Origin: an uncultured archaeon
GTDB taxonomy: Archaea > Asgardarchaeota > Thorarchaeia > Thorarchaeales > Thorarchaeaceae
DNA length: 64,000 nt
Assembly (NCBI GenBank): GCA_964558645.1
Contig: CAZLEV010000007.1
Coordinates: forward strand, 1 to 64,000
Direction: 5' to 3'
Shown here: positions 4,603 to 34,771 of the stretch, piece by piece
Numbering within the stretch: the stretch's first letter is position 1
Layout of the letters: each line of letters opens with the position of its first letter
The notes under the pieces: model-generated
What the model was told of the DNA's origin: nothing
The model's database searches: none
Seen by the model: only the letters and a program-made list of their open reading frames with translations
Program-made: the position numbers and the translations under genes

Positions 4603-4607
4603 GAGGA

Positions 4608-10210: not shown

Positions 10211-10222
10211 CCACACACCCCT

Positions 10223-16558: not shown

Positions 16559-16604
16559 AAAGTCAAATTCTCCTGAAGAAGATGGGGAGTTAGATGATTC
16601 CGTC

Positions 16605-18578: not shown

Positions 18579-18606
18579 CAGCCCGACCTAAAGGAATTAG
18601 GCTGCT
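18577..18606 (+). terminator. Possible hairpin just after the 16605 gene
   Basis: AGCAGCC (18577-18583) pairs with GGCTGCT (18600-18606); no T-tract. Confidence 0.25.
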
Positions 18607-18735
18607 TGACCTGCCTATCTTTGAGGACATCGGTTGCCTTTGCCAGTTTCAAGAATCCCCTGTCATGTGTTTATCTGGTCGCTGAGATCTCTTTAGTACA
18701 AGCTGCGGCATCCTCTGAATCTCACATTGTATCAC

Positions 18736-18841
18736 TTGTTTGTATACATTTGTCCAAAGAGAAGAATGGAGAGGCATTATAATACCCTCGAAACTCCAGA
18801 GAGCGCTTATGAGCAAATAATAGTAATAAGGAGGCATTATG
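18736..18841 (-). promoter_or_regulatory. Composite motif copy B: core TTGGACAAATGTATACA on the minus strand (18757-18741), plus three 30-nt-periodic repeats
   Basis: Plus-strand GAGGCATTAT (18771), GAGCGCTTAT (18801), GAGGCATTAT (18831); lies about 100-200 nt upstream of the operon's first gene. Confidence 0.6.
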
Positions 18842-18941
18842 AACAGAATAAATGCGCCTATACAGAACGCATAGTCCGTATCGCCATGCGGGCGAAGACT
18901 GAATACTTCTCTGGATAGAATATCTCCATAGGTGAAAATGG

Positions 18942-19607
18942 ATGTTACTTAGTCTACTTCCAGAGATGTGCTCGAGTCAGACGGTTGACTTGCTGAAGTC
19001 CATAAGCAGGTACAATACCGCAGACAGGGTACTCGTAAGCTCATTGAGCCACAGGTCATCTCTTACCATGCTCTGGGGGTTGCGGAGCACTATTCTCAAC
19101 ACGTTCGTTGAGCAGCCGCGGCGTTTCTTCCTTTGTGATATCCCTGCGCTAGTACCTGCTCTTGTTGCTATAACTCAGCCAGGAATACAGGGCGGCGCAA
19201 TTGTGCGGAACGATACCACGAAGGTCTACATGAGTTTCGATGATAGAAGCCCTATACATACGTTACGCACAGCATCACAAGTCCTTGCCATGTGGGATCG
19301 TCATTGTGAGCTGTTCTACGACTGCCTTTTGAAGGAGTCAGAAGACTTGCTTCCGGAAGCTACGCGCAGGCGATGGATGGATTTCCTCTCCTCTGCCTCA
19401 GGCTTGATTGCGGGATCGGCCGGTTGGTCGACGAACACACATAGGTCTACGGCGCTGAGGATTCTAGTGTCGACCGCTGACACGATGCTATGTTCTGCTT
19501 TCAGTCGAGAGCGTCTTCGGGACCCCCTGCTATCTTCAGTAGTCAACTTCCTGCATACTGAGCAGGCTTACCAGGCGCATCAGACTGCAGGGGGTGTTAC
19601 GGCATGA
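18942..19607 (+). CDS. Hypothetical protein, first gene of the recombination operon
   Basis: AGGTGA SD-like sequence at 18930; stop overlaps the next start (ATGA); no recognisable motif. Confidence 0.65.
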   Translation: MLLSLLPEMCSSQTVDLLKSISRYNTADRVLVSSLSHRSSLTMLWGLRSTILNTFVEQPRRFFLCDIPALVPALVAITQPGIQGGAIVRNDTTKVYMSFDDRSPIHTLRTASQVLAMWDRHCELFYDCLLKESEDLLPEATRRRWMDFLSSASGLIAGSAGWSTNTHRSTALRILVSTADTMLCSAFSRERLRDPLLSSVVNFLHTEQAYQAHQTAGGVTA

Positions 19608-20602
19608 CGTCACTTGAGAAGGTCAAAGATATCGGGCCGGTCACAGCCAAGCGCCTCGGGGATGCTGGAATACACAGCGCAGAACACCTTGCCATGATGG
19701 AAACACTACCAGTCCTAGATGAGCCAGGACCTGATAGGCTTGAGGAGCTTCAACGGCATGCTCGTAGGCTCATCTTCCCATCTGAGGTTGTGCCTTCTCA
19801 AGACATTGATTCAGGTCGTCACATTCGAACTGGTATTCGGGATCTTGACAAGATACTACTGGGAGGCCTTCGCACTGGGACAGTGATGCATATCCATGGG
19901 AAGTCGTCATCTGGAAAGACAACACTGTGTTGTCAGCTCGCGGTCCGGGCAAGTGCCCATGGTCGAGTCCTCTGGATAGACAGCGGGGCCACATTCAAGC
20001 CCTATCTGACGAGAACCATAGCCACAAGATGCGGATGGAATCCCGACTCAGTTCTGGACATGATCGACCACGCTTTGGCCATCACACAGTTCGACCTTGA
20101 AGAGATTGTCCAGAAGATGTACTCCCTCCTCTCTGATAGAAGGTCAGGATACGTGCTCTTGGTCATAGACTCGTTGTCCAGCATATTCCAGACGGAGTAC
20201 CTCGGGGTCACTTACAGTCTGGCTGCAAAGCGTGACCTTGGTCGCTTTCTTCGCCTCCTCTTCAAGATAGCGTTGGCCCACGATCTCTGTGTGGTCTTCA
20301 CGAATGGCGTCCATGAGAGCATCGGAAGTTACACCTGCCACGGTCAATACGAGCCGGATGCCGAGTTGGTTGTGAATTCTCTATCCACTACCGTGCTGAG
20401 TATGCGAAGGAGGAGGCGTAACGAGTACCGTATCACCGTCGAGAAGGGAGGAGTGGGGAACGACTCGGTACGCAACGTATCGGCGTACCTGGGCTACGGA
20501 GGATTCTACGACGAATCGAATCAAGCAAGAGACACTGAACTCTGGAGGACCGTCTATGAGTCCTCCGAGAATCTACGACTGATTATGGAGGAATCAAGAT
20601 GA
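19604..20602 (+). CDS. RadA/Rad51 paralog with N-terminal HhH (probably catalytically impaired)
   Basis: LEKVKDIGPVTAKRL (HhH), TGIRDLDKILLGG, Walker A GKSSSGKT, Walker B LLVIDS; DSG in place of DTE and TNG in place of TNQ. Confidence 0.85.
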   Translation: MTSLEKVKDIGPVTAKRLGDAGIHSAEHLAMMETLPVLDEPGPDRLEELQRHARRLIFPSEVVPSQDIDSGRHIRTGIRDLDKILLGGLRTGTVMHIHGKSSSGKTTLCCQLAVRASAHGRVLWIDSGATFKPYLTRTIATRCGWNPDSVLDMIDHALAITQFDLEEIVQKMYSLLSDRRSGYVLLVIDSLSSIFQTEYLGVTYSLAAKRDLGRFLRLLFKIALAHDLCVVFTNGVHESIGSYTCHGQYEPDAELVVNSLSTTVLSMRRRRRNEYRITVEKGGVGNDSVRNVSAYLGYGGFYDESNQARDTELWRTVYESSENLRLIMEESR

Positions 20603-21660
20603 CAGAACTAGAGGCCGTCATGGGCGTGGGCCCCGGTACAGCAAAGCAGCTGGAGAAAATCTTTGTGACCACAGCCGAACTACTGGCTGTTCAGAATCCT
20701 ATGGAACTGCAGAAGAAGACAACTCTCGGCGAAGGCACCGCTATCAAGATCGTCCGTAGTGCGCGAGAGCTGATGGGGATACACGGGTTCCAGAGCGGCA
20801 TAGACTTTGAGAAGAAGATGGCTGCGAAGAAACGATTGAAGTTCGGTATCCCTGATATTGACAAAGGGCTTCTCGGAGGTATCGAGGAGGGATCAATTGT
20901 GGAGATTTATGGCGCGGCACGTGGCGGAAAGACTCAGTGGTGCTCACATCTGGCTGTTCGAGCTCAGCTCCCCGTGGAGGAAGGTGGTCTAGGGGGAAGA
21001 GTCCTGTGGATGGACAGCGAGTCTTCGTTCAAACCATGGATCATTCGTGCCATAGCAATCAGACTTGGTCTTGATCCTGCAGTGGCCTTGGGCAATATCG
21101 GCATCTCGCAGATGATTCTCTCGTCACAGATTGCCGATACATTCGAAACCATTCCCAATCTCTGTGCTAGTCAAGACTACAAGCTAGTGATCATCGACTC
21201 TTTCAGTGGCTTGTTCAGAGCGGAATACACTGCATTGAATGACCTGAGCGTCCGACAGAAAGACATGAACTCCCTTCTGAATTCGATGCGTAGGGCTGGA
21301 ACCGCCACCGGAGCCATCTTCATCTATACCAACCAAGTGCTCAGCAACATAGGCAGCTACGGTTTCAGTGGACCAGGTCCCATAGGGGGACACATCCTTG
21401 CTCATGGCTGTGATTATAGATTCTATACGCGGCTCGGCAAGCCCCCACTACGAAAACTCCGGCTTGTTGACAACGCTGGTGTTCCTGAGTTTGACGCCAC
21501 GACTGTTCTTGGTTGGGGTGGTTTTTACGAGAACCAGAAACAGAGGACTGCTGGGGAGAAGAAAATTGAGGAATACATCGAGAAGAAAGGTTGGAATGCT
21601 CGTCTGATGCCTGATGGATCTGTTGTGGAAACAGGGATGGAGGAGGATGAGAAGGAGTGA
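20599..21660 (+). CDS. radA: Full-length divergent RadA/Rad51-type recombinase
   Basis: HhH N-domain, GFQSG (FxxA-like), EIYGAARGGKTQ, QLPVEEGGLGG, DSE, LVIIDS..LFRAEY, RQ, TNQV, PIGGHILAH. Divergent, so it may not be the housekeeping radA. Confidence 0.88.
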   Translation: MTELEAVMGVGPGTAKQLEKIFVTTAELLAVQNPMELQKKTTLGEGTAIKIVRSARELMGIHGFQSGIDFEKKMAAKKRLKFGIPDIDKGLLGGIEEGSIVEIYGAARGGKTQWCSHLAVRAQLPVEEGGLGGRVLWMDSESSFKPWIIRAIAIRLGLDPAVALGNIGISQMILSSQIADTFETIPNLCASQDYKLVIIDSFSGLFRAEYTALNDLSVRQKDMNSLLNSMRRAGTATGAIFIYTNQVLSNIGSYGFSGPGPIGGHILAHGCDYRFYTRLGKPPLRKLRLVDNAGVPEFDATTVLGWGGFYENQKQRTAGEKKIEEYIEKKGWNARLMPDGSVVETGMEEDEKE

Positions 21661-22058
21661 CAGTGTTCTACGTGTACCGATGTAATGCCTGTCACCAGCT
21701 TGGCTTTCAGCAGCACGAAGGACTTCGTAGCCTGAGCTGCAGTGTTTGTGGTGCGGACATCGAGGAGTACATTCGTGCCCCGAATCTAGAGCAGGCTCGT
21801 CTAGTAATGTCGTCGCTGTCAGCTGAGAGTTCACAGCAAGTACGGCCGATTAGTCGCGGTAGAGGTGTTCAGGCACGCGTGCTGGATATAGTTGAATGCT
21901 TGGTCGATGGAAATCGGGGCCGCCCCGTACGAGTTTCAGCTGTACTTAACGAGTGCAGTGATGCAGATATTCCCACGGAACGCGCATGGCATTTCCTGAA
22001 TCGGTTAGAGGCCATAGAAAGAATCCGTCTGGTAGGGAAGGAGGTTACTTTGCTATGA
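21657..22058 (+). CDS. Zinc-ribbon + winged-helix protein
   Basis: CNAC...CSVC; C-terminal 'RVLDIVECL...VSAVLNEC..ADIPTERAWHFLNRLEAIERI' wHTH pattern; GTGA and ATGA overlaps. Confidence 0.72.
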   Translation: MTVFYVYRCNACHQLGFQQHEGLRSLSCSVCGADIEEYIRAPNLEQARLVMSSLSAESSQQVRPISRGRGVQARVLDIVECLVDGNRGRPVRVSAVLNECSDADIPTERAWHFLNRLEAIERIRLVGKEVTLL

Positions 22059-22645
22059 CAGCTGTCTCAGATGCCTCTCCTGCACATAACCTAATCCGCC
22101 TCGTGAACTTCTCACGCCGTAGTGGTAAGGAACGACTTGCGCTGGTCAGACTTCCAGGATATGTGGAGCTCAACCCGGAGATCTATCTCATTACTCGGGT
22201 GAACTGGCGATCTGAAGATTTCGAATCCCCGATACTGCCGTATCTCCCCCGGCTCCTTGCTATCATCGAGAGTGCTCGTGGTTCTGACGCAGTGCCCACT
22301 GAAGTAAACCTCGAGTCACTAGAGGGCGTCATGGTTCATATCCCCACGGGTGTCCGTTTCTCGGATATCCCGGAAGAACGGGGAAAGAGCATTAGTTTTC
22401 TGGTGAGGCTGATGCAGGACACCGCCCAGTTCTTCTATGACACTGTGGATGAAGTGGTCGCTTACTTCTGGAAGGCCGCAAGGCAACGCGGGTTCAGCCG
22501 ACGCATTGTCGAAAGAATGGGTAGGAAGGAACAGGGCTTTACTTCCCCATTTCAGCTGAGGCAATTCGAGGAGTTGCTACATGCATACTTCTCTGTGAAG
22601 TTCATGGTTCAGAAATCCGAGTCAAAGCTCAGGTGGGAGCGATAA
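22055..22645 (+). CDS. Hypothetical protein
   Basis: ATG 22055 overlaps the upstream TGA, with GGAGG SD upstream; no recognisable motif. Confidence 0.7.
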   Translation: MTAVSDASPAHNLIRLVNFSRRSGKERLALVRLPGYVELNPEIYLITRVNWRSEDFESPILPYLPRLLAIIESARGSDAVPTEVNLESLEGVMVHIPTGVRFSDIPEERGKSISFLVRLMQDTAQFFYDTVDEVVAYFWKAARQRGFSRRIVERMGRKEQGFTSPFQLRQFEELLHAYFSVKFMVQKSESKLRWER

Positions 22646-22646
22646 G

Positions 22647-24599
22647 ATGATTTCAGGAACGTATCTCGACCCGGTTCACGATGTGTTTCCGTATAGATTA
22701 CGAGATGGGCAGCAGACCGCCATAGAGTACGCCGCAGATATTTTCAGGAGTGGCAAGATCGGGTTGCTCTCTGCAGACTGTGGAGTGGGAAAGACAATAG
22801 CAGTACTCAGTGCCTTTGTGGGGGCAAGGTTGAATCACGAGAAGGCTCGACTGGTGGTACTCACCCGGACTCATAGTCAATCGAGCGTGTTCGAAGAGGA
22901 GTGTCTTACACTTGCCGACCGATTCCCGATAATCGGCACTAGTATGGTGAGCAGAGTTCATGTCTGTCCCAATGTCGGAGAGATTAACAAGATGAGCGAT
23001 CTCGGCTTTATCCGAGGGTGTGCTTATCTTGTCAGGACCGGGAAGTGTTCATACTATCATAGTTTCTACGATGCACGAGGTGATAGAGGCCAACTGCGAG
23101 AGAACGCCCACGCGGCAATAGAAGAAGCAGTGGCACGGTCAGTTGTTGACCGCAGCACAGCAGAGGGTGTTTCTAGGGATTGGGGAATATGCCCCTACGA
23201 ACTCTTGCGGTGGTGTGCGAAGAGAAGCAATGTGATCATAGGACCGTACGCCTACTTGTTGAAGAGTCGTGTGCGAGAGGCATTCCTCTCATCATTGGAC
23301 CTTTCAATCGATGAGATTGACCTGTTAGTAGATGAGGCCCATAACCTTCCCGAGCAGATGGCCGAATCTGAGTCTGCTTCAATCACCGGGCAAGACATCC
23401 AATGGCTGAGAGAGCACAAACACGACCTCTCACGAGAAACCGGCTACGAATGGTTAGAGGACGTCATAGAGTTCCTTTGGGACACATTCACCTTGAACAC
23501 GGGTCGACTGCATCATGGCGGCGAGCAAGAGCTCAACATCTGGGAGGTACTTCCAAGGTTTGCAGTTGAGGCGGACATATCATTGCTGCTTACTAAGACT
23601 GGATATGTGCAGAGTGGTGATGATGTAATCGCGGCCGAAACACCTGCTGACCGTCTCTTGGACTTCTTGTATACGGCAATCTTAGCTTCAGAGTCTAGCG
23701 ACCAAGATGACTGGCACATAACTTTTGAGACAGGCAGAACGTGGGACGAGAATCCTCGCCTTTCCCATACGAGGCTGTGTATCCGCCCCCTGAACACCGC
23801 AGGATTATGCTCCTATCTCGTACACAGTACGCGATCTGCTGTCCTGATGAGCGGGACGCTTCGGCCAACCAGTCACTATGCAACAATCCTTGGCATGCGG
23901 GACGCTGAAGTCTGTGACATAGCCAGTCCCTATCCGGTCGGGTCGCGACTCGTGCTGATAGACAAGAATCTGAACACGGCCTACAAGAACCGTTCTCCTT
24001 CACTGTATGGGGCTCTTGCTAAGAATCTCTCACTAGTACTCACACATAGTCCTGCAAACAAGAGTGCCGTTGTTGCTTTCTCCAGCTATGCCATCATGAA
24101 TGATGTCTTGAGCTACGGCGTTGAAGACGGTTTTCGGAGGCGAGTAGTGGAAGAGCGCCATGCGCGAGTTGACGATATACGGGAGATGCTCTTGGAAGAG
24201 CCTTCTGTGCTATACTCTGTCTATGGCGGCAAGTTCTCGGAAGGAGTCGACCTAGTAGATGGGGGTGCGAGTCTCCTGGACCTTGTTGTTGGTGTTGGAA
24301 TCCCGTTTGCCCCACCAACCTCGTATCATCTAGCGCTGCAATCATGGTACAACCGAAGGCTTGGTGAGGGTCGAGGTTACTATTACGCAGCGGTGATGCC
24401 CGCCCTTCGGAGGGTGGTCCAACTAGTGGGGCGTTTGAGACGTTCTCCTGCAGACCTTGGTGTGGTGGTATTGCTTGACAACAGGTTTCTGCGGCATGTT
24501 TCCATGCTGGGTCCGCGTGCAGCAGCTGATACTTGGCCCTATTCCACAGAGGACGAGCTTATTGAGGCAATCGAGATGTTCTGGAGGAATGCTACTTGA
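22647..24599 (+). CDS. XPD/Rad3/DinG-family Fe-S cluster DNA helicase
   Basis: Q motif RDGQ, ADCGVGKT, four Fe-S cysteines (HVCPN, RGCA, GKCSY, ICPYE), DEAHNL, MSGTL, SEGVD, GIPF, QLVGRLRR, LLDNRF. Confidence 0.92.
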   Translation: MISGTYLDPVHDVFPYRLRDGQQTAIEYAADIFRSGKIGLLSADCGVGKTIAVLSAFVGARLNHEKARLVVLTRTHSQSSVFEEECLTLADRFPIIGTSMVSRVHVCPNVGEINKMSDLGFIRGCAYLVRTGKCSYYHSFYDARGDRGQLRENAHAAIEEAVARSVVDRSTAEGVSRDWGICPYELLRWCAKRSNVIIGPYAYLLKSRVREAFLSSLDLSIDEIDLLVDEAHNLPEQMAESESASITGQDIQWLREHKHDLSRETGYEWLEDVIEFLWDTFTLNTGRLHHGGEQELNIWEVLPRFAVEADISLLLTKTGYVQSGDDVIAAETPADRLLDFLYTAILASESSDQDDWHITFETGRTWDENPRLSHTRLCIRPLNTAGLCSYLVHSTRSAVLMSGTLRPTSHYATILGMRDAEVCDIASPYPVGSRLVLIDKNLNTAYKNRSPSLYGALAKNLSLVLTHSPANKSAVVAFSSYAIMNDVLSYGVEDGFRRRVVEERHARVDDIREMLLEEPSVLYSVYGGKFSEGVDLVDGGASLLDLVVGVGIPFAPPTSYHLALQSWYNRRLGEGRGYYYAAVMPALRRVVQLVGRLRRSPADLGVVVLLDNRFLRHVSMLGPRAAADTWPYSTEDELIEAIEMFWRNAT

Positions 24600-25189
24600 G
24601 AGAGCAACTGAGCTGGTTGGCTACTATTGGCGTACCGATTGCACTGGCATCGGGCTGGGTGTTACGTTTGGTCTTCGATAGATCGTTGCATTCAGTGCTT
24701 CTATCTCTTGCTGGATTAGGCATCGTAGTGATAGCCATCATTCTCATGCTGATCTCTACCAAGTATGTGCGATACTGGGATGAGGAGAATAACATACTTG
24801 TAGATACGGGGCCCTTTACAGTCGAAGTATCAATTCTAGTGCTATTCGATAGGATTCCTATCGGAATCACCCTGTCTCACTCAGCCAAGCGTGTTCTACT
24901 GGCTATGCATGATCATTATCATCATTCGAGGGGGGGAGCGGTCACATTCATTCTCGCACGACCGGTGGGCAACTCGCGGACTCGACTGGGGTTCAAAGTG
25001 ACTCGGCGGGGCCTTCGTATTCCACTTGCTGACACTTTCGAGCGTTTGAGGGATCGGGTAGTCGAGGATGCTCATGTCCTGCGTGCTGCCATGAATGCAG
25101 CTTACCCTCATGTCGCCATTGCCATGGGTAACTTGGCCGACTCGGTTCTAGCAGATTCAGGAGGTATTGAAGAGATTGAAGCAGTTTGA
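24596..25189 (+). CDS. Hypothetical membrane protein (2 N-terminal TM helices + soluble domain)
   Basis: TTGA overlap with the helicase stop and GGAGG upstream; two hydrophobic helices in aa ~5-55. Confidence 0.7.
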   Translation: MREQLSWLATIGVPIALASGWVLRLVFDRSLHSVLLSLAGLGIVVIAIILMLISTKYVRYWDEENNILVDTGPFTVEVSILVLFDRIPIGITLSHSAKRVLLAMHDHYHHSRGGAVTFILARPVGNSRTRLGFKVTRRGLRIPLADTFERLRDRVVEDAHVLRAAMNAAYPHVAIAMGNLADSVLADSGGIEEIEAV

Positions 25190-25454
25190 AAGCATTGAGA
25201 TTCCTGTTGGTGTAGACTCCGAAGATGTGATGGACGCCATGAAAGGACTGTCCTACTCATGGACCGTTTTACTGAATGACCCACTCAATGCAGTGGGACG
25301 TTCCAAGATTTACCCGCCTGTAGCTCTGATGCATGACCGTGTACTCATCGAACAGGACGAAACCCGCACCATTCAACGCGTGAGAGGACTTCTTCGTGCT
25401 ATGAGCTCACTCTCTACGGAGGGAATGCACGGTAAGCGCGGTGTGTCGCCATGA
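25167..25454 (+). CDS. Small hypothetical protein
   Basis: GGAGG SD before TTG; stop overlaps the next ATG; fills the operon gap. Confidence 0.55.
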   Translation: MKRLKQFESIEIPVGVDSEDVMDAMKGLSYSWTVLLNDPLNAVGRSKIYPPVALMHDRVLIEQDETRTIQRVRGLLRAMSSLSTEGMHGKRGVSP

Positions 25455-27781
25455 GTCATGTTCTTGGATCGAAGCCCACGAAGGACCCTCTTGAAGAAGT
25501 CAAAGGTGCAAGATATGCAGTACAAGAAAGCGTTGACATAAAGTGGGTTGACCGCAAGGCGAGTAGACCGTGGGAGATTGTAGCACTCTGTAGCCTGGCT
25601 TCACTCCTGGCCAGCATGATTGCACCATATTTGGTTATTGCAGGTTCAGGAGTCGTCCTATTGCTTCTGGTCTACTTCCACTCATTCAGACCTATCGAGA
25701 TGTATGAACGGGCTGGACTCGTGAAGGTCAAGGAGAGCAACCTGGAGTTTTCCAGACCTGATACAAGAAACGGTTCTGTCAGATATCTTCGAAAGACCCA
25801 CAACAATCCCTCAGTGTACTTGACCGGACTAAGGCTGGACGCCCCAGGTGCTTTCCTTAGTGGCGATATGAGCCGGCTCGTCAGAGGCGTACCGACATCT
25901 GCCGGACTCTTTGTAAGTGTACGAATGGTTCCGGCTAAGCTACGTGCGATTGTCAACGAGAACACGATATCTGGTGCTCACGAAGCATATCTGGATCATC
26001 TGGAACACGACGCTTTGTGTGGTTATTTCCAGAAACGTGGCGGGCTCTGGCAGAGTTCCGTGCAGGTGATTCTGCAATCCAATGAACTATCGACACTTGC
26101 TAGGTGTCGTAACGCAGTCAAGGGTGCGATTCCATCGCGAAACTGGAAGGATCTGACATGGGTTCAGAAGAAGAGTCTCGAGTCGCTACGATCAGCACCT
26201 AGTATGGAAGCGTTTTATGCTCTGGGAATTGAACTCAGTGAATGGCTTGTCCAGATGAGGACCGAGCTAGCAGCTGAAGTAGGTGAGTCGGTACCAGGGC
26301 AGTTTGTTGCACCTATTAGAGAACAATCCGACCAATACTATCTTGGAAGAATACTCAATCCTGACACCTTGGAGTTAGGTCCTCGAACAGGGCCGACTTA
26401 CCAAAACATCAGGACTGGGATGATCATCTGCGGAGGTGATTATTCTCTACGCAGGCGTATACAAGCCTTAACGATGCAGGCTCTTGTGCAGGACGGGAAG
26501 CGATTAGTTCTGATAAGCACAAATCCCATGGCTGACGAGCTGGTTGCACTCAGCGACAGCGGAGTAATACTACGCCTCGGTTCGGACTTGATACTGAACC
26601 CGGTTGACTCAGACGGAATAGACCGTACCACATACTTACCCCGACTCATCACAGCTCTAGAGATTGTTGCAGGAAAAGACTTGAGTAATGCTCCGATGTT
26701 CGAGGGGGCGCTTTCGCGAGCCGTAGCTCTGAATGATACGACCATTGCAGATGTAAGAATTCAGAGCGACGACCCCATGGGTGGAGACCCCTCGGTCAGC
26801 AGTCGTGAGGACAGGGAGCAGAACGATGCTTCACGGGCCGGGATGGCTGCTATCCAGACGCTCCTAGAGGGCAGTGCCGCTCGAGCCTTCTACGGACATC
26901 AGACCGTACCAATATCTGCTCTAGGCGAGCATGAACTGACCATCGTGAAGGTTGGACTCGGTTCAGAACCTTTGGACATCTTTGCACTTGACCTGCTTGC
27001 GTTGAAGCTTCTCACACTGGAAGATGAGAATCTCGTCGTAGTCTTCGACGACGCCGAGAACTTCCTTGTTGATAATGTAAAGTACAGGAAACGGAGTCTC
27101 TTTGCCCAACGACTGGTTCGGGAACTACTCCAACGTTTCGGGGTGGTACTTTCAGTTGAACACCCATTCGAGATCCCTGCGCGTATCACCAACAGCATTG
27201 AGACTGTTATTGCCGGGCGGACAAAGGGTGGCGACAACGTGGCAGTTGTATCAGAACTGCTCGGGTTGAAGGTGATTGAGACTGGTATGCATAGCAAGGC
27301 ACGGTGGTCTGCTAGAGAGAGTTCGTTCCTACGAGTGATGGATGATGACATTGTGCTCATAGTGAACGGCTCTGAGACCTGCAGACCCATGCGTCTCTTC
27401 GAAGAGCCCGACCTCATTGTGGACGATCTGGCATCTTTGAGGGAACGGAGCAGGTCTCTCACCAAGTCGAGAAGATCTCATGCTTCCCATTCTGGGAGGT
27501 TGGTGGACCAACTCGGCGATGACGTCGGTATCAACATGAGAGTGCTTGAGCTCTTGGATCAGTATGAGCCCCTTACAGAGGAGGCAATTGGGAAGTTCAT
27601 TTCGGCGCAAGATGAGGAGGATGTGGATGTCAAGGCTGTGTTGATGCGTCTTGAGGAAGGTAATATGATTCTCCCAGGCCATGAACAGCATGCGGGAGTG
27701 TCCTACAAGAACTTCAGGCTGACCATGAAGGGACGGATGGCTCTGAAACAGAGTGAACACTCAGGAGATGATGTGTCCTGA
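25451..27781 (+). CDS. Membrane-anchored HerA/VirB4/TrwB-like protein with degenerate Walker A and C-terminal wHTH
   Basis: 2 TM helices (aa ~42-78); 'YYLGRI', 'GMIICGGDYSLRRR' at the Walker A position, 'LILNP', Walker B-like VVVFDDAENF, 'RELLQRFGVVLSVEHP..IPARITNSIETVI'; C-terminal 'FRLTMKGR' wHTH. Confidence 0.68.
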   Translation: MSHVLGSKPTKDPLEEVKGARYAVQESVDIKWVDRKASRPWEIVALCSLASLLASMIAPYLVIAGSGVVLLLLVYFHSFRPIEMYERAGLVKVKESNLEFSRPDTRNGSVRYLRKTHNNPSVYLTGLRLDAPGAFLSGDMSRLVRGVPTSAGLFVSVRMVPAKLRAIVNENTISGAHEAYLDHLEHDALCGYFQKRGGLWQSSVQVILQSNELSTLARCRNAVKGAIPSRNWKDLTWVQKKSLESLRSAPSMEAFYALGIELSEWLVQMRTELAAEVGESVPGQFVAPIREQSDQYYLGRILNPDTLELGPRTGPTYQNIRTGMIICGGDYSLRRRIQALTMQALVQDGKRLVLISTNPMADELVALSDSGVILRLGSDLILNPVDSDGIDRTTYLPRLITALEIVAGKDLSNAPMFEGALSRAVALNDTTIADVRIQSDDPMGGDPSVSSREDREQNDASRAGMAAIQTLLEGSAARAFYGHQTVPISALGEHELTIVKVGLGSEPLDIFALDLLALKLLTLEDENLVVVFDDAENFLVDNVKYRKRSLFAQRLVRELLQRFGVVLSVEHPFEIPARITNSIETVIAGRTKGGDNVAVVSELLGLKVIETGMHSKARWSARESSFLRVMDDDIVLIVNGSETCRPMRLFEEPDLIVDDLASLRERSRSLTKSRRSHASHSGRLVDQLGDDVGINMRVLELLDQYEPLTEEAIGKFISAQDEEDVDVKAVLMRLEEGNMILPGHEQHAGVSYKNFRLTMKGRMALKQSEHSGDDVS

Positions 27782-29991
27782 CAGCAACGAGTTCCTCTGA
27801 GGATACTATACGCGCCGATGTGCAGGCTCTCTTGACGCGTGTGGGATTGAAGCCCAAGGGTGTCCAGGTTGATGCGATTGAGAATGGTCTGTTGGATGGA
27901 ACAAGTATCATGGTTTCTTCCCCAACAGGGTCGGGAAAGACACTGATAGGAGAAATGGCTTTGCTGCGCGCAGTCTTTGAGGGCCGTAAGGGGCTCTATA
28001 TCGTACCCCTGCGTGCACTCGCTCGACAGGTCGCAACCACTCTGCGAGAACGATATCAGACTCTCACTGGCCTGACGGTGGGTCTCAGTACTGGTGATTA
28101 CCAGCAGGGCGGGGACGAGCTAAGCGAGAACGACATCATCGTCACTACCTACGAACGTGCTGATTCTCTCTTGCGTCATCGCACAGATTGGCTCGATGAT
28201 ATCGGAACACTGGTCATCGATGAGATACAGAACTTGGACGACGTGAACCGCGGCCCTCGCCTCGAGACTGTGATCATGCGTATGCGACGGAGCATTCCTG
28301 ACAACCTACAGATTGTTGCTCTCTCCGCCACCGTGGGTGCACCTGATGAGTTGGCTGAGTGGCTTGGATGCAGGCTTGTAGAGTCGAACGAACGCCCTGT
28401 GCCGCTCCAATGTGCCGTTCTAGAGACTGCTGACCGTCAGGAAACCATCACAAGAGTGGTGATGTCAACCGTGAGGAGCAATGGGCAGGTGCTTGTGTTC
28501 GTGAGGACACGGGCATCAACAGAGTCCATGGCAGAAAGGCTAGCACCAAGTGTGACCAGGCAGCTCACCTCACGGGAGAGGGATTCGATAGTGAGTGAAC
28601 TTCAGAGCATTGAGCATTTTGGAACCACCGTTCCATTAACACTCCAGACGCTTCTCGAGTCTGGTGTTGCCTACCATCACGCTGGGTTAGACGCTCTAAC
28701 AAGGCGTCTTGTTGAAACTATGTTCCAGAAAGGGATGGTGAGATTGGTATGTTCTACTACAACTTTGGGCTCTGGCATGAATCTCCCTGCTCGTACGGTG
28801 ATAGTAAGCAGTGTGCGCAGTCCTGGTAATCATAGCGACTACATCGATACGAACAGGTTACACCAAATGCTCGGACGTGCAGGGCGGCCAGGAAAGGATA
28901 CGAAAGGCTTCGGTGTGGTGATAACTGAGAGCCGTGGAGAGGCAGAAATGGTGAAGTCTAGATACTTCATTGAGGGTGCTGGTGGCCTCGAGCCGAAGTT
29001 CTCAAGGATAGACAGTGCACTGAATAAGCCTGCTGCGCTAACCGAACAGCTCCTTGTTGCCCTCGACTTTCTTGGGGGGGCGGACTTGGAAACAATTGAA
29101 CATGATTACTTTGCTGATAGCTACCTGCAATTTCTAGCCGTTCGAGATACCATGGCTCCCATGAGGAGCTTCATCTTCGAAGAGGTCTCAGCAGTCGCCG
29201 TAATCGAGAAGCACGCACTTAGTGGAACCGTGCGAGCTGCTCGGCAATCTGTATTGGGTGCCGTGGACATACGAGAGGTTTCTGACTCCGTGATCGGTGG
29301 TCTCGTATCAGATGGTGGCAGCAATGCGTCCTGCCGATTCTCGATCAGACGAGACGAGAACGGCATGTCCGAGGGGGCGATGTGTAGTTGTGGCCGGCCT
29401 CTTGACGAATCGAGGGTTCTCTGCCCACATCTTGTGAATCTCGGTTTCTATGCTGCCCAGAAGTATCAAGAGATTGCCGACTACGTTATCCCCTTGTCAC
29501 TAAGTGAGTCAAGTCCTGTTCGGATCCTCGTTCGGATGGGGCTGATTGAAGGCGGGCAAAAGGGTCTGCGAGCGACACATCTTGGAAAGATAGTTTCGAG
29601 GCTTTACTTGAGCCCGGGGACAGTACGAGAGATACTGCCGCTGCTTCCGCTTACAGAAAGCAATATCGACCTGCTTGACCTATTGAAGATAGCCGCAAGG
29701 TGTGAGGGTGGGCAAACAGGCGTTGACCTAGAATTCATTGTGGGCACAGTGGTTTCCACTTCTATGCCCGTGGAAGAGATAGCTGAAACATGTGGCTTGC
29801 ATATCGGGGATGTCTATGCACTTCTGGACCTAACTGTTTGGCTGCTCTATGGCATCGCGGCTATTGCCGAGGCCGGGAACATGAAGCGAGTCGCAGAGAT
29901 GGCATGGGATGTCTACCGGCGAATAGAGGAACGACGAGGAGGAAAGTATGATGGAGGCGACAGAGAAGAGAGCGATAGAAGAACCGACTGA
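27778..29991 (+). CDS. Hel308/Ski2-family SF2 helicase with inserted SWIM zinc finger
   Basis: SPTGSGKT, YIVPLRALA, TGD, DEIQ, LSAT, YHHAGL, TTTLGSGMNLPA, QMLGRAGRPG; CSC-x10-CPH at 29383-29430. Start tentatively CTG 27778 (track start GTG 27820). Confidence 0.9.
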   Translation: MTATSSSEDTIRADVQALLTRVGLKPKGVQVDAIENGLLDGTSIMVSSPTGSGKTLIGEMALLRAVFEGRKGLYIVPLRALARQVATTLRERYQTLTGLTVGLSTGDYQQGGDELSENDIIVTTYERADSLLRHRTDWLDDIGTLVIDEIQNLDDVNRGPRLETVIMRMRRSIPDNLQIVALSATVGAPDELAEWLGCRLVESNERPVPLQCAVLETADRQETITRVVMSTVRSNGQVLVFVRTRASTESMAERLAPSVTRQLTSRERDSIVSELQSIEHFGTTVPLTLQTLLESGVAYHHAGLDALTRRLVETMFQKGMVRLVCSTTTLGSGMNLPARTVIVSSVRSPGNHSDYIDTNRLHQMLGRAGRPGKDTKGFGVVITESRGEAEMVKSRYFIEGAGGLEPKFSRIDSALNKPAALTEQLLVALDFLGGADLETIEHDYFADSYLQFLAVRDTMAPMRSFIFEEVSAVAVIEKHALSGTVRAARQSVLGAVDIREVSDSVIGGLVSDGGSNASCRFSIRRDENGMSEGAMCSCGRPLDESRVLCPHLVNLGFYAAQKYQEIADYVIPLSLSESSPVRILVRMGLIEGGQKGLRATHLGKIVSRLYLSPGTVREILPLLPLTESNIDLLDLLKIAARCEGGQTGVDLEFIVGTVVSTSMPVEEIAETCGLHIGDVYALLDLTVWLLYGIAAIAEAGNMKRVAEMAWDVYRRIEERRGGKYDGGDREESDRRTD

Positions 29992-31570
29992 GGAACATCC
30001 TGAAACAGAGTCTGAGGAAACTCCTGCAGAGACTGACAGTGACGTAGCGTGTATAATGAATAAGATGGGTTACACCACCCACCAGTTTGCGAATGGACTC
30101 TTGGCTGGTACTGATTACATCGGAATCAAAGGTACAAACTCAGTCTTGGTTGACACATTGATTGTTCTCGACCTTCGTAGTAGCAAGTTTGGTAGAAGTC
30201 CCCTTGCCATGAAGAGTGAGGTTTTGGAGGTTGCAACTCAGCCACTGGAACGGTTGTTGAACACTGTGAACTCAGGCGAACGTCTACAGCTACGAAAAGT
30301 TCCCACTGTCTGCGGGACACTGGAAATTCCTATGCTATTATCTGAGAGTGGCGATAACGGGTCGGAGGTTTTCGAGTCGAGATCTGCATATGTCATTGTT
30401 GATGGTGTTCGCCCTTCATCGGACTTCGATTGGTTTGCCGATGAGAGTCGAATCATAGGCTTGGATGAGTTCTCCCTCTGTGTGAATAGCAGCCGACGAA
30501 CGCGTGTCACTGAACTGTCCAAGAGTATAGACTCGAAGAAATGGGACCATATGAAAAAGAGCGTGCGGGGGTGGTATCTGGTCGCAGCACTGATCTTCGC
30601 AGCTGCAAACATTCTCGCTCTGCTCTCCGTGGCGTCACTCTTCTCTCTGCTTCTTCTCGTGGGCGACATACTGTTTATGATGTTCTTCTTTGCGGTGACA
30701 CGAAAGGCTGTCAATGATTTTCGTTCCACATGCCAGGTTGAACGGCAGGCTACGAAGAACATCGGTGATATGACCCGGTTCAAGAGAGGCTTGGAAGAGA
30801 ATAAGCAAGATCTGGAAATGATGGCCGAGCTGAATTTCGTCATATCTCCAATGGTATCTCTTGCTGCGCGCTCTCTCGCTAAGGACGACCTGGATAGTGC
30901 TGTGGAGATCATCGACCAAATCTTTACTGAATGCATTCTCAGATCGAGTTCTGTTGACAATGACTATTCTGGAGATAAGGGTCTTGCCAAGTTCATCGGC
31001 CTATTCGAGGGACTGGGAGTTCCAGGTATCAAAAAACAGAAAGAAGGAATTGCCCTCTCATACGTCGCACTGACAGGACACGTAACGAATCCTCTCTCAG
31101 AAGAGGAATTCATCAAGCATATCACCCTCCTCAATGATGTTCTGTTCCAAGCTGGACTTCTGCGTGCAGAGGCCAAGAGCACAGTCGATGACACAATCAA
31201 CTATCACTGTCTTGGCAAGGCTGTTCAAACTCTTGACGAGGAAATCGTTGACACCGATCCCGAACTAACCGGGAGAACGGCGGAGGAGAATCTTGTTTCT
31301 GACATTGAGGAGAGCGGTGAGGCGGCTGCCAAACAAGACGCCATCTCCGTTGAGGAGACAACGGTGAAAGAACCACCTTGTTCTGTGGATGACAGATCCG
31401 ATGAAGAAGGGCCAGAATATGCCAGCTCTGAGACCCCGCAAGACGCGGTTGATAGTGTTGCACCCGAGCCGATTGTCACGGGCCCCGAAGTTGTGAGTCG
31501 TCGCAGGAATAGCCTTGCGGAGGCTGACGGGCCAACAACAAGTGCTGCACTGAAGACGGAGGACGAATAA
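29948..31570 (+). CDS. Hypothetical membrane protein (central TM hairpin, acidic disordered termini)
   Basis: Two adjacent hydrophobic helices (aa ~208-251) followed by a helical region; E/T/S/P-rich N- and C-termini. Confidence 0.7.
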   Translation: MMEATEKRAIEEPTEEHPETESEETPAETDSDVACIMNKMGYTTHQFANGLLAGTDYIGIKGTNSVLVDTLIVLDLRSSKFGRSPLAMKSEVLEVATQPLERLLNTVNSGERLQLRKVPTVCGTLEIPMLLSESGDNGSEVFESRSAYVIVDGVRPSSDFDWFADESRIIGLDEFSLCVNSSRRTRVTELSKSIDSKKWDHMKKSVRGWYLVAALIFAAANILALLSVASLFSLLLLVGDILFMMFFFAVTRKAVNDFRSTCQVERQATKNIGDMTRFKRGLEENKQDLEMMAELNFVISPMVSLAARSLAKDDLDSAVEIIDQIFTECILRSSSVDNDYSGDKGLAKFIGLFEGLGVPGIKKQKEGIALSYVALTGHVTNPLSEEEFIKHITLLNDVLFQAGLLRAEAKSTVDDTINYHCLGKAVQTLDEEIVDTDPELTGRTAEENLVSDIEESGEAAAKQDAISVEETTVKEPPCSVDDRSDEEGPEYASSETPQDAVDSVAPEPIVTGPEVVSRRRNSLAEADGPTTSAALKTEDE

Positions 31571-32194
31571 GTGTCCGACGCGGGTATCCTGAAAGGGTTC
31601 GTGCACATTTCCGGGATTGGAGGTTCTGGAAAGACACTCTTGTGCTCCGCGATTGCCGCAAAACGGTCTCTTGAGGGTCATGTCCTCTGGTTCTGCCTTG
31701 ACGGAAAATACGCCTTCATCAAGACTCTGAAAAATATGTTTGATGCATATGCCGGTTTCAAGGACAATCTGACCATCCTCGTGACGCAGGATGGAGCGGA
31801 CGCAACTGAGACTCTCCTGACACTACGGGAGAGACTGCGTGATAACACGAAAACCATTGTCATTGATCCTATTACGAGAGTGCTTCATATGGGTCAGCGA
31901 GATGGTTCCCCTTGGGGACGTGAGCTCATCGAGGAGGTGCTACCTACCATTGCAGCTTTATCACTGTCAAGAGGTATTATGGTAGTTGTCACCAATCAAA
32001 TTCGGGAACTGAATGGAAACCAGGTGCCAGTATATCATGCGGCGATTAAGAAATGGGCTGATGTTGACCTGCAGCTTGAGACTGATGGTTCCACAGACGT
32101 CTTCTCTCTCCTCGACAATGAAAGCGATAGATGCTGGAGATTCAGAATTGCGAACAACAGGGTGAGTTTTGAGGAGGAGGGCGTAGTTCTGTGA
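31571..32194 (+). CDS. RadB/Rad51-paralog-like short RecA-fold ATPase
   Basis: VHISGIGGSGKT, IVIDPIT, VVVTNQIR; no N-terminal HhH domain. Confidence 0.8.
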   Translation: MSDAGILKGFVHISGIGGSGKTLLCSAIAAKRSLEGHVLWFCLDGKYAFIKTLKNMFDAYAGFKDNLTILVTQDGADATETLLTLRERLRDNTKTIVIDPITRVLHMGQRDGSPWGRELIEEVLPTIAALSLSRGIMVVVTNQIRELNGNQVPVYHAAIKKWADVDLQLETDGSTDVFSLLDNESDRCWRFRIANNRVSFEEEGVVL

Positions 32195-33066
32195 TCGGCA
32201 TACTTCGCATTGCCAAGCACGTTGTTGCAGCAGCTGTAGTCTTGGCACTGGGCGCTGAATTGCTGGCCTTGACAACTTCTATTGTCGTTCTGGTTAGACT
32301 CGGAAACATAACCCCACTAATCGTGTTGGCTGTCCTAACGTTTGGGATAATCTACCAGTCCGGACGGATGAAGACAGAGGAGGGTAAGAAGTTGAACCTC
32401 GCAAAGACGGTACTTGATGCGATGTCTCTTGTTCTCGGAGGAATGCTCTGTCTAACAATTTTCTTTATTGCACTGCCCTCCGGGATAGTTATGCTGCTCG
32501 GCTCGATAGGAGGCACCTGTGTCCTGATGGCTCTAGTCCGGAATCCCGGGAAGATCTCCATGGTCGTGTCAATGCCCTATGCCTCAGTACTTCGACATGA
32601 TATCTCTTCTCTGAACCTTCGGGTTTTCGAGCTTGAGAAGGGTCAGCGTGAGGGCGTCCTTCGAATGCTGGATGAGAGAAGTCTTCTTCGAGTCAGTATC
32701 TGGATACTTCAAGACCTTGACACCATAATATTCCCAACGCGTCACTCAGAGAGTGTTCGTGGGGTGCTAGATGAGTATGGTCTCCAATATAGTCGAATGG
32801 ATATGCTGCTCGAATCTGCTGTGTTAGCCCTTCCACTCAGCGATAGCGTTCGGCCTGAAGAATATGTGAGTCTTGTTCCGTCATTGAGAGAGAGAGTTAT
32901 CGAGAGATGGCCTGTGCGTATGATGCTTTTCCCCTCTCCAGAAGGAGTTTCAGTTCTTGTTCCTCGCAGTATTGTTCGAGGGATGCCTACTGAACCACTC
33001 TCGTCTGGTCAGGCATACCGTGCAGTGGTCTGCCATGAGCTGGTAACAGGTGATAACCTTGCCTAG
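32191..33066 (+). CDS. Hypothetical membrane protein (4 N-terminal TM helices + soluble domain)
   Basis: Four hydrophobic segments in aa 1-118; GTGA overlap and GGAGG SD. Confidence 0.7.
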   Translation: MIGILRIAKHVVAAAVVLALGAELLALTTSIVVLVRLGNITPLIVLAVLTFGIIYQSGRMKTEEGKKLNLAKTVLDAMSLVLGGMLCLTIFFIALPSGIVMLLGSIGGTCVLMALVRNPGKISMVVSMPYASVLRHDISSLNLRVFELEKGQREGVLRMLDERSLLRVSIWILQDLDTIIFPTRHSESVRGVLDEYGLQYSRMDMLLESAVLALPLSDSVRPEEYVSLVPSLRERVIERWPVRMMLFPSPEGVSVLVPRSIVRGMPTEPLSSGQAYRAVVCHELVTGDNLA

Positions 33067-33778
33067 AGAAGTTCCATTAGACGACGGCTATTCAAGTGCA
33101 GAGATACAGGTACGGCCTGACGTACTGCATACAGTGCTAGGGTCCTCGCTTCAGCCTCGCCTCATGTCAGTGGTATACAGCGAAGAGCGAGCCCCCCTGA
33201 CATGGTTTGCCCATCTTCTGGCAGTTTCAGCCGCCCACTCTGATACAGAAGTCGCCTTTATCGACTCCGGGACCAACTACTCCTCTGCTTCAGTTCGTGC
33301 ACTCTGCGCGGGGTCGGAGCTGGAAGTACTGAGGAGAATCCATGTTGGAAAGATTCTCGGGCTGGAAGCATTAGTAGACCTCATCGACGAGATGGCTGTT
33401 CTAGGACCGAGGCTTGTGATAATTGACAGTCTCACCGGCGCCCTGAATCTTAGTGGTGGCCCTTATAGCAAGGAATCAAACCGAAGATTCTTCTCAGCGC
33501 TTGATGCGCTGCGTCGCTTTGTAAACGAAAACCATTCGACCGTAGTCTTCACTGACCGTTCGACTAGACGTTGGAGTGATGGGACTCGTCGACCTGCAGG
33601 CGGGAATATCTTGGCCCATGCAGTGGATAGCGTGATCTACATTGCCAGTCTTGAGGGTGAGAAGAGGAACGAATATGTTAAGGTGAATATCGAACGGGCA
33701 CCATCCGGGGTCGAATATGATGCAGTAATCATACGACTAGGTTCGGGGGGCGTGAGATCGATAAGGAGCGATACGTGA
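33050..33778 (+). CDS. Rad51/RadB-paralog-like RecA-fold protein lacking Walker A
   Basis: VAFIDSGTNY, LVIIDSLT, VVFTD, RPAGGNILAHAVD; P-loop position reads YSEERAPLT. Confidence 0.78.
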   Translation: MITLPREVPLDDGYSSAEIQVRPDVLHTVLGSSLQPRLMSVVYSEERAPLTWFAHLLAVSAAHSDTEVAFIDSGTNYSSASVRALCAGSELEVLRRIHVGKILGLEALVDLIDEMAVLGPRLVIIDSLTGALNLSGGPYSKESNRRFFSALDALRRFVNENHSTVVFTDRSTRRWSDGTRRPAGGNILAHAVDSVIYIASLEGEKRNEYVKVNIERAPSGVEYDAVIIRLGSGGVRSIRSDT

Positions 33779-34771
33779 ATGGGCGTTCGTAACTGGAAGG
33801 GTCTGTTGCACTGGAGCTGGCAGTCCTTGGAGGAGATTAGCGTCCCGATACTAGCTATCGACTTTCCCAACTACATGTCAAGGAGGCTCAGTGTGTATTC
33901 GAACCGGAGGAATCCCGAGCGGATTCCCACAGAGCATGTGTCTATCCTTGTTGGCATCGTACGTGCCTCACTTCGAGCCAATGTTCTTCCAATGTTCGTA
34001 TTTGACGGGCCACCTGAGGCCTTGAAGCGCCGTTCTAACCCTGAGCTTGTCTTGAATGCACATCGTTTGTATCGCCGATTCTGTGGCAATGGGAATGCGT
34101 ACGACGAAGATATTGCCTATGAACTACGGACCAGCCCTGCCCTTCGACTATACTTTGCTGCTGAACATGTCAAGGAGTTATCTAGTCTTTGTGGCATTCC
34201 TGGGGTCACTGCGCCATCAGAGGCAGAGCTCTTTGCTGCGGTGTTATGTCGTGAGAGAAAGGTGGGCACAGTGGTCAGCAACGATGCCGATACGATTCTC
34301 TTCGGCTCGCCCCACGCAAGCAGAGCTATGAAACTCACACAGGGCCGTATCGAGAGTACCACATTGGCGTCATTGATTAGTGAGACAACTCTGACCCTCT
34401 CACAGTTGCGTGATCTTGCAGTCCTATCCGGGTGTGATTTCCACTCCGGAGTGAAAGGTGTCGGCCCGAGAAAGGGTACTGTCTTGCTACGCAGGCATGG
34501 TGACCTACCATCGGTTCTAAGGCATCTTGGTGTTTCTTTTGAAGAGAGGGATGGGTTGATGCGCGCACGAGAGGTCTTTGATGAGGGAGAGATATCAATT
34601 CACGTCGGAAACACCAACTTCACGTTATCTCCACCTCTACCATCTCGCCTGATGAAGACGCTTAGTCTGACAATGAGTGAAGCTAGAGCCGAGAAGATAA
34701 CACGTGACATCGTTCGGTCTTGGAAGGACTTCGGAAACACACAATCTACGCTTGAGAGCTTTGTTCGATGA
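33779..34771 (+). CDS. fen: FEN1/XPG/GEN1-superfamily 5' nuclease with PCNA-interacting motif
   Basis: MGV N-terminus, LAID, VFDG..P..K, APSEAE, SNDAD..LFG, H3TH GCDFHSGVKGVGPRK, C-terminal PIP box QSTLESF. Divergent, possibly a paralog. Confidence 0.88.
   Translation: MGVRNWKGLLHWSWQSLEEISVPILAIDFPNYMSRRLSVYSNRRNPERIPTEHVSILVGIVRASLRANVLPMFVFDGPPEALKRRSNPELVLNAHRLYRRFCGNGNAYDEDIAYELRTSPALRLYFAAEHVKELSSLCGIPGVTAPSEAELFAAVLCRERKVGTVVSNDADTILFGSPHASRAMKLTQGRIESTTLASLISETTLTLSQLRDLAVLSGCDFHSGVKGVGPRKGTVLLRRHGDLPSVLRHLGVSFEERDGLMRAREVFDEGEISIHVGNTNFTLSPPLPSRLMKTLSLTMSEARAEKITRDIVRSWKDFGNTQSTLESFVR

Follow-up and report, generated by a model that had tools for sequence, protein, structure and literature searches.

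How do Asgard archaea, the closest known relatives of eukaryotes, exchange and recombine DNA? This is an unsolved question, and it is raised in concrete form by an operon in a genome of the Thorarchaeaceae (assembly GCA_964558645.1, contig CAZLEV010000007.1), in which genes for homologous recombination enzymes and genes for membrane proteins stand in one block. The operon comprises 15 genes on the + strand (g01 to g15, positions 18942-34771; Table 1) within the 64,000-nucleotide (nt) stretch that was analysed, hereafter the window. The source genome is 3.6 Mb in size, in 37 contigs (the window is contig C7), and is 92.8% complete. We conclude, with a probability of roughly 55%, that the 15 genes encode one vertically inherited accessory system for recombination and DNA processing that is anchored at the cytoplasmic face of the membrane.

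A coupled gene block and its recombination enzymes

An earlier note on this DNA, made from the sequence alone, described 15 same-strand open reading frames (ORFs) with essentially no space between them. A direct check found all 15 where they had been placed, and 13 of the 14 junctions are coupled. Seven junctions are NTGA overlaps of four nt (at 19604, 20599, 21657, 22055, 24596, 25451 and 32191), three have gaps of 0-1 nt (22647, 31571 and 33779) and three are longer overlaps (-23 at 25167, -44 at 29948 and -17 at 33050). The sole deviation is the g09/g10 junction, where the earlier note had read a further NTGA overlap at 27778. That codon is CTG, which is not a standard start; the first ATG, GTG or TTG in the frame of helicase g10 is the GTG at 27820, which leaves a gap of 38 nt after g09. 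Membrane and soluble genes are interleaved along the block (g06-g07-g08-g09-g10 and g12-g13-g14).

The same order, g01-gX-g03 through to g15, was identified in 12 fetched regions and in 47 loci of a species collection, at protein identities of 22-62%. Here gX is a 150-amino acid (aa) gene of other genera that is replaced by g02 in the genus studied. Gene order is thus kept across about 45 species-level Thorarchaeota genomes, the comparison that the earlier note had called for, and together with the junctions this confirms the block as one conserved coupled unit. Recurrence on this scale far exceeds chance. Among 21 loci with a length of 20 kb or more, BLAST recovered all 12 core genes in 18. 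One exception is a reduced form in the sister family (RadA-Zn-g05-XPD-..-g09-Hel308-g11), a second is a locus in which g13 is too diverged to match, and the third, a complete chromosome, is taken up below where the function is weighed.

The distribution of g09 (the ring-fold protein described in the next section) follows the family. Of 24 sampled genomes of the same family, 19 contain it, with weak matches elsewhere in the phylum, and a profile search across 300 phylum genomes identified full-length g09 in 52 of 76 family genomes and in the sole sampled genome of the sister family. Two of the five apparently g09-negative genomes carry other operon genes on other contigs; these two absences are therefore assembly gaps. 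Most genomes of the family have the operon in one copy at a fixed locus, with vertical-looking divergence.

Other Asgard families have g09 in two pieces, an N part (transmembrane (TM) segments plus N-domain) and a C part. The split gene adjoins a RadA-like gene and a large M28-peptidase-like protein in one family (6/6 genomes positive), and elsewhere it adjoins a Hel308-like helicase with a RecA-like gene. Thus, pairing of the ring with a RecA-family or a Hel308-type protein is older and broader than the 15-gene form. In another Asgard family, alignment of the g07 and g08 profiles (hhalign) with two small ORFs that precede split g09 gave no similarity. Also present directly after split g09, in two other Asgard families, is a NifH/frxC-family gene (L093 6299-7186; L040 7803-8729).

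Pfam and NCBIfam agree with the domain calls of the earlier note (RadA, XPD, Hel308-like, RadB-like and FEN1). Scores of g02, g03, g06, g10, g12, g14 and g15 fall below the NCBIfam equivalog cut-offs, and these proteins are therefore paralogues. The conserved recombinase g03 has a Rad51 domain (about 159-160 bits in Pfam) plus HHH_5, and reaches 219.9 bits against NCBIfam RadA (cut-off 259). Its Walker A/B, DSE, TNQ and L2 motifs are invariant or nearly so in 33 orthologues. Its nearest solved structure, by comparison with PDB sequences, is RadA of P. furiosus (188 bits), followed by RAD51 (150 bits), and a specific parallel with the eukaryotic recombinase, as drawn in the earlier note, finds no support. 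The Rad51 match of g02 is lower (about 106-107 bits). This protein is closest to g03 (29% identity, 134 bits, versus 63 bits against canonical RadA) and occurs only in the two genomes of this genus (G000 and G001); gX occupies its position in 28 other loci. Thus, g02 is an eroded local duplicate. All four proteins that had been counted as RecA-fold do have the fold, but this one, as a genus-specific copy, lies outside the conserved system. The two remaining members match weakly: g12 to RadB/AAA_25, with G15, G20, K21, T22 and D99 conserved in 33 orthologues, and g14 to Pfam Rad51 (29 bits) and NCBIfam RadB (44 bits), with GK[ST] in none of 31 orthologues.

In the XPD paralogue g06, Walker A, the four Fe-S cysteines, DEAH and motif VI are invariant or nearly so in 40 orthologues, and the protein scores 148.8 bits against TIGR00604 (cut-off 246.95). 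The FEN1 paralogue g15 keeps its acidic active-site residues invariant or nearly so in 30 orthologues, scores 112 bits against TIGR03674 (cut-off 352) and ends in a PIP box, QxTLEQW[LIV], in 27 of 29 orthologues. Among sequences of solved structures, g06 is nearest to archaeal XPD (110 bits versus 57 for FANCJ) and g15 to FEN1 (75 bits versus 36 for GEN1), and the proposed parallels with FANCJ and with GEN1 find no support. One Thorarchaeota genome has the operon's FEN1 gene as two ORFs of 152 and 178 aa (L039 16514-17565; L058), which suggests a frameshift or a sequencing error.

The Hel308-like helicase g10 comprises DEAD, Helicase_C and Helicase_dom4_arc (the archaeal domain 4) in Pfam. It scores 296-381 bits against NCBIfam Hel308 models with cut-offs of 887-1200, and its best PDB matches are Brr2 (261 bits) and Hel308 (238 bits). 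Motifs I, II (DEIQ) and VI are invariant or nearly so in 41 orthologues, as are, without exception, the residues of an inserted CxC..CxH motif (C522, C524, C535 and H537). The earlier note had read this insert as a SWIM domain: the pattern of metal ligands stands, but Pfam SWIM gave no match at E 0.01 or better, and the specific analogy with SWS1 finds no support. Invariance of catalytic motifs in 30-41 orthologues makes RadA (g03), g12, XPD, Hel308 and FEN1 look active. Of the soluble proteins between the recombinases and XPD, g04 has C9, C12, C28 and C31 invariant in 13 orthologues, and g05 has a mean column identity of 59%, also over 13 orthologues.

The operon copies are not the only copies, a point on which the earlier note had asked for a check. 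Elsewhere in the genome are a canonical radA (C1:147782; 314 bits in Pfam versus about 160 for g03 and 107 for g02), two RadB-like genes and another RecA-like gene, a better-scoring xpd, two further fen genes and several Ski2/Hel308 genes, so that a second set of these enzymes is present as had been proposed. Identity across five genera is 87-90% for canonical RadA and 51-62% for the operon copy, and 60-61% for canonical XPD and 45-50% for the operon copy; the membrane proteins of the operon are 22-40% identical. A housekeeping XPD lies about 2 kb upstream of a RadB-like gene (G000:C6:151765-154946; L010, L004), and an XPD-RadB association therefore exists outside the operon too.

Membrane proteins and a ring protein that lacks Walker A

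TM segments are predicted in g07, g09, g11 and g13, the same four proteins that had been taken as membrane proteins. Hydropathy gives one hairpin each in g07, g09 and g11, and 4-5 segments in g13. The hairpins are flanked by basic residues (positive-inside), so the soluble domains should be cytoplasmic. By prediction, these anchors, of the hairpin or 4-TM kind, have hardly any external loops.

Eight of the proteins (g01, g04, g05, g07, g08, g09, g11 and g13) have no match in Pfam, PADLOC or PHROG. Profile searches against PDB sequences gave nothing for g01 and g05. Protein-atlas feature searches returned nothing usable for g05 and g11, and for g01 only weak, low-recognition helical-repeat look-alikes. 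The TM segments of g11 lie at 208-250, and its AlphaFold2 (AF2) model has a predicted local distance difference test (pLDDT) score of 77; against Foldseek-PDB, VIA-wide and Atlas this confident model matches only through its long helical hairpin, or at a TM-score <0.5, and yielded no fold assignment. A complex prediction for g12, g14 and the C-terminal domain of g13 scored 0.00, which is evidence neither way.

In the AF2 model of g09 (pLDDT 68 overall, >85 over much of 310-560), a TM hairpin and an alpha/beta N-domain precede a RecA-like core, and a winged helix lies at the C-terminus. Foldseek places it with TrwK/VirB4 (1e-11) and HerA (3e-11), and VIA-align with VirB4 4ag5 (Z 27.0; 2.9 A over 326 aligned residues), DndH-C (Z 24.6), HerA 4d2i (Z 23.2) and TrwB (Z 20); full-length TrwK aligns to residues 94-666. 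The HerA/VirB4-like fold claimed for this membrane protein is thus confirmed, but not as an ATPase. Every Thorarchaeota orthologue, like the distant Asgard homologues, has GGxxxxR at the Walker A position in place of GxxGxGK[ST]. No match to Pfam DUF87, and no sequence-level match to VirB4 families, was obtained for g09, and its profile retrieved only weak HerA tails among PDB sequences (E 0.006).

Of the clusters related to g09 in a profile search of 1.84 billion representatives, 123 reach an E value of 1e-30 or better, and 1359 reach 1e-10 or better. GK[ST] is missing in 140 of the best 150 of these relatives, which have GGTxxxR or NGTxxxRE instead, and the first relatives with an intact P-loop are Pfam DUF87/HerA_C proteins. 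Thus, g09 is a member of a large offshoot of the HerA/VirB4 superfamily that lacks the P-loop. Seven other DUF87-type genes are present in the genome; the VirB4 N-domain family was not found there. Related large proteins of 1230-1340 aa (P0049-P0139; L104), in which a P-loop-less HerA-like core with NGTxxxRE follows an N-terminus of about 540 aa, are frequent in another Asgard family, where 26 of 68 genomes have them, and the gene for one of them comes after that for a 690-aa HhH protein. In a further locus (L105 8001-12931), a P-loop-less homologue of 847 aa directly precedes a protein of 794 aa that matches HerA_C weakly; the two could be a pair of one dead and one live ring.

Flanking regions

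The intergenic region upstream of g01 is 92% identical in a sister species. It contains GAGGCATTAT at 18771 and 18831 (60 nt apart) and GAGCGCTTAT at 18801. In the sister species the third of these repeats is conserved, the second largely kept and the first altered. Also present, about 70 nt upstream of g01 and behind a strong AAGGAGG, is a mini-ORF of 11 codons (18839-18874) that may encode a leader peptide. The sister species retains its ATG, its length and a stop, which is weak evidence because the two genomes are 92% identical there.

In four other genera the order is GH3 (-), operon, dn_578 (-), the 5-TM protein, the surface protein of about 2600 aa and the homologue of up_691 (-), past which synteny ends; in the present genus up_691 has been relocated upstream of the operon. 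In the giant protein a signal or TM segment at the N-terminus is combined with Ig-like, MG2 and alpha-alpha-toroid domains (Pfam) and with a TM anchor at the C-terminus. Its longest ORF (TTG at 37270) overlaps the 5-TM gene by 169 nt, and the true start is probably later, because the hydrophobic signal lies at residues 55-73. The idea that up_691 and dn_578 are paired regulators that bracket the operon is not supported, as they show no detectable similarity (E 0.63).

Further upstream, on the - strand, are a gene for a 425-aa protein with a C-terminal Ras/Roc small-GTPase domain behind a 240-aa N-terminus, typical of Asgard genomes (12161-13438), and a MacB/FtsX-type ABC transporter cluster (3715-10864) that encodes two very large permeases, of 950 and 930 aa, together with two ATPases, of which one bears a MraZ-like tail. 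Rfam and tRNA scans identified no RNA genes in the window.

Table 1. The operon and its neighbours in the window, in order of position
Feature	Coordinates	Strand	Basis or remark
GH3-family adenylating enzyme	14786-16327	-	conserved next to the operon, on its upstream side, in at least two other genera
up_691	16503-18578	+	in other genera, the homologue follows the giant protein and has the opposite orientation
Intergenic region before g01 (presumed promoter); contains AT-rich boxes and GAGGCATTAT repeats	18579-18941	+	direct reading
g01, soluble, 221 aa, first gene of the operon	18942-19607	+	22 loci have an orthologue in this position
g02, eroded extra RadA copy with HhH, genus-limited	19604-20602	+	Pfam Rad51
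g03, full-length RadA paralogue, the operon's conserved recombinase	20599-21660	+	Pfam Rad51, motifs
g04, Zn-ribbon (CxxC..CxxC) and conserved C-terminal domain	21657-22058	+	alignment
g05, soluble, directly upstream of the XPD gene	22055-22645	+	13 orthologues
g06, XPD-family Fe-S helicase paralogue	22647-24599	+	DEAD_2 and Helicase_C_2
g07, TM hairpin and C-terminal domain of about 140 aa	24596-25189	+	two predicted TM segments; 40 orthologues
g08, small soluble protein, 95 aa	25167-25454	+	orthologues in 40 loci; no family match
g09, 776 aa, TM hairpin, N-domain, VirB4/HerA fold without Walker A, C-terminal winged helix	25451-27781	+	AF2 model
g10, Hel308/Ski2-like helicase with inserted CxC..CxH zinc motif	27820-29991	+	Pfam, alignment
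g11, hairpin-anchored; N-terminal alpha/beta and C-terminal helical domains, both predicted cytoplasmic	29948-31570	+	TM prediction, AF2
g12, RadB-like RecA fold, Walker A/B intact	31571-32194	+	NCBIfam RadB, 31 bits
g13, 4-5 predicted TM segments and C-terminal soluble domain of about 180 aa	32191-33066	+	hydropathy; 27 orthologues aligned
g14, RadB/RadA-like RecA fold without Walker A, L2-like GGN..H kept	33050-33778	+	Pfam/NCBIfam
g15, FEN1 paralogue with C-terminal PIP box	33779-34771	+	XPG_N and XPG_I
dn_578, convergent soluble neighbour	34857-36593	-	adjoins the operon end in 26 loci; no family match
5-TM membrane protein, 203 aa	36827-37438	+	five predicted TM segments; adjacent in 4 of 4 other genera, 34-56% identity
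Giant surface protein, about 2600 aa	37270-45174	+	downstream of the operon in 5 of 5 genera

Possible function and rival explanations

We infer from these features that the products act as one complex at the membrane, and the nature of the DNA on which they act. In the proposed mechanism, g09 would form a VirB4/HerA-type ring that is held at the membrane by its N-terminal hairpin. Since Walker A is absent, it would serve as a DNA-holding scaffold with a winged helix and not as a motor. The proteins g07, g11 and g13 would be further hairpin or 4-TM anchors with soluble domains that face the cytoplasm. ATP-driven work would come from two helicases of opposite polarity, XPD (5'-3') and Hel308 (3'-5'), while g03 would form the strand-exchange filament, helped by the RadB-like pair g12 and g14 (one ATP-binding, one not) in the manner of Rad51-paralogue mediators. 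The PIP-box FEN1 g15 would then trim flaps with PCNA after invasion and synthesis.

A close comparison is with DNA import by the Ced (Sulfolobales) and Ted (Thermoproteales) systems, both of which are domesticated type IV secretion machines (PMC9905601; PMC11868833; PMC11823120). They are defined by a VirB2-like pilin (CedA1/TedC), a 7-TM VirB6-like channel (CedA/TedA) and a VirB4-like ATPase, and Ted loci also bear HerA and Rad50 genes (PMC9905601). Like the operon, both are chromosomal, vertically kept and combine a VirB4-fold protein with membrane partners; recombination genes neighbour the Ted loci, and the split g09 of other Asgard families recalls the sharing of the VirB4 N-domain by CedD and CedB. 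Unlike them, the operon, which belongs to another phylum, encodes a ring with GGxxxxR where a functional Walker A would be expected, shows no sequence match to VirB4 families, contains no recognised VirB2-like pilin or 7-TM VirB6-like channel, and has far more recombination enzymes. As to a pilin, g07 has a predicted TM hairpin but no family or profile match; as to a channel, g13 has 4-5 predicted TM segments and the neighbour at 36827 has five.

The archaeal HerA-NurA-Mre11-Rad50 operon for end resection also encodes a HerA-superfamily ring with homologous recombination functions, and the nearest P-loop-intact relatives of g09 are of the DUF87/HerA_C type. However, the Pfam families of NurA, Mre11 and Rad50 are absent from the 15 proteins, and the ring is membrane-anchored and ATP-dead. 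Bacterial competence employs the ComEC channel, the SF2 helicase ComFA, DprA and RecA. The likeness here is one of concept: a membrane apparatus, an SF2 helicase that pulls in place of a ring pump, and a mediator that loads the recombinase. No homology to any component was found and no channel protein was identified in the operon; it is an analogy only. In eukaryotes, RAD51-paralogue complexes act with HELQ. The operon similarly places a recombinase and RecA-fold mediators, ATP-binding and non-binding, beside a Hel308/HELQ-type helicase; its components are nearest to archaeal RadA, RadB and Hel308, and the membrane anchoring has no eukaryotic counterpart.

As substrate we tentatively favour, at somewhat less than even odds, DNA that arrives at the envelope from another cell or from outside, so that recombination would be coupled to exchange; that the system repairs the chromosome of the cell itself is almost as probable. 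DNA import is plausible, and continuation of the block into the genes for the 5-TM protein and the giant surface protein speaks for a link to the envelope. Several observations pull the other way. Without a P-loop the ring cannot pump DNA as VirB4, CedB or HerA do, and no pilin, VirB6-like channel or externally exposed protein was recognised among the 15 proteins, of which eight have no recognisable family, so that key activities may have been missed. On the complete chromosome L070 (CP070761.1), the operon begins at g04, with no RadA paralogue at the locus and no RadA paralogue, g01 or gX within 10 kb upstream, and in three family genomes that are 90-92% complete none of g05, g09 or g11 was found. 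The system is therefore dispensable, or at least variable. A bolder version, in which a membrane-docked machine linked to the giant, species-variable surface protein receives chromosomal DNA of other cells and integrates it, with XPD and Hel308 driving translocation through the ATP-dead ring, we consider speculative and improbable.

A serious rival is a purely internal module for repair or replication restart, whose enzymes would deal with damage or stalling on the chromosome of the cell itself; the membrane proteins would only sequester, regulate or localise these enzymes, for example as a nucleoid tether. Every recognisable enzyme is of a repair or recombination type and nearest to archaeal housekeeping families, the PIP box of FEN1 implies PCNA-coupled synthesis, the membrane proteins expose almost nothing outside, and the ring is ATP-dead. 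Yet a full housekeeping set is already present, and the fast evolution of the operon copies is unusual for core repair. This explanation also leaves four strictly conserved anchors, a VirB4-like ring and constant envelope neighbours unaccounted for. We regard it as possible but rather unlikely in this pure form, although the evidence cannot separate it from exchange-coupled recombination.

Defence against mobile elements, in which the HerA-like ring, helicases and nuclease would sense and destroy foreign DNA, recalls Sir2-HerA, DUF4297-HerA, TdpAB and Hachiman. The structural neighbours of g09 include HerA proteins of defence systems (ring-domain fold, Z 19-25, for Sir2-HerA, DUF4297-HerA, TdpAB and DndFGH), the Hel308-like helicase matches HamB profiles of Hachiman, and the components evolve fast. 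But the rings of those HerA systems are active ATPases with an effector nuclease or NADase, and the operon encodes no such partner, be it HamA, Sir2 or DUF4297. PADLOC 2.0 found no system-specific defence component, only matches to generic XPD and Ski2 helicase models. Its 'type IV CRISPR DinG' call for g06 was set aside as generic because canonical XPD scores higher on the same model (334 versus 260 bits). Defence islands are patchy, whereas this locus is single-copy, fixed, family-wide and vertical-looking, and a PCNA-binding FEN1 alongside a recombinase and its mediators suits repair, not killing. We thus think a defence role improbable.

Could the genes be unrelated, a super-operon brought together by chance or by shared regulation only? 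In favour of this, eight proteins match no known family, and what groups the products is the arrangement of their genes. Against it, the coupling of translation persists at identities of 22-62%, genes for soluble and membrane proteins are interspersed, and the association of g09 with RecA-like and Hel308-like genes recurs independently in other Asgard families, which makes mere coincidence very improbable. Least probable of all is a resident or domesticated conjugative or viral replication-recombination module: the VirB4-like fold of g09 and the precedent of Ced and Ted as domesticated conjugation machines (PMC9905601) invite the idea, but the operon has no integrase, relaxase, tRNA target, PHROG match or intact ATPase, its chromosomal neighbours are the same in different genera, and its GC content (0.50-0.53) is near that of the flanks (0.47-0.52). 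The match to a provirus, conjugative element or defence system that the earlier note had named as a possible refutation was thus looked for and no such signal was found.

Literature searches found no published description of the operon and, in line with the earlier note, neither these nor the searches of defence and phage families matched a system of such composition. A 2025 preprint on Asgard RadA paralogues leaves Thorarchaeota unmentioned, and highly divergent sequences were discarded there before trees were built.

In summary, the operon duplicates a recombination toolkit, comprising a recombinase, two mediators, two helicases of opposite polarity and a PCNA-binding flap nuclease, and wires it to novel membrane proteins and to a VirB4/HerA ring without a P-loop. 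It exposes a large uncharacterised family of HerA-like proteins that lack Walker A. For the Asgard archaea it is a concrete, testable candidate for DNA exchange, or for a new type of membrane-tethered repair. If the former is true, it would be a new archaeal route of DNA exchange that does not rely on a type IV secretion system, in the lineage nearest to eukaryotes and, in reduced form, in other Asgard archaea.

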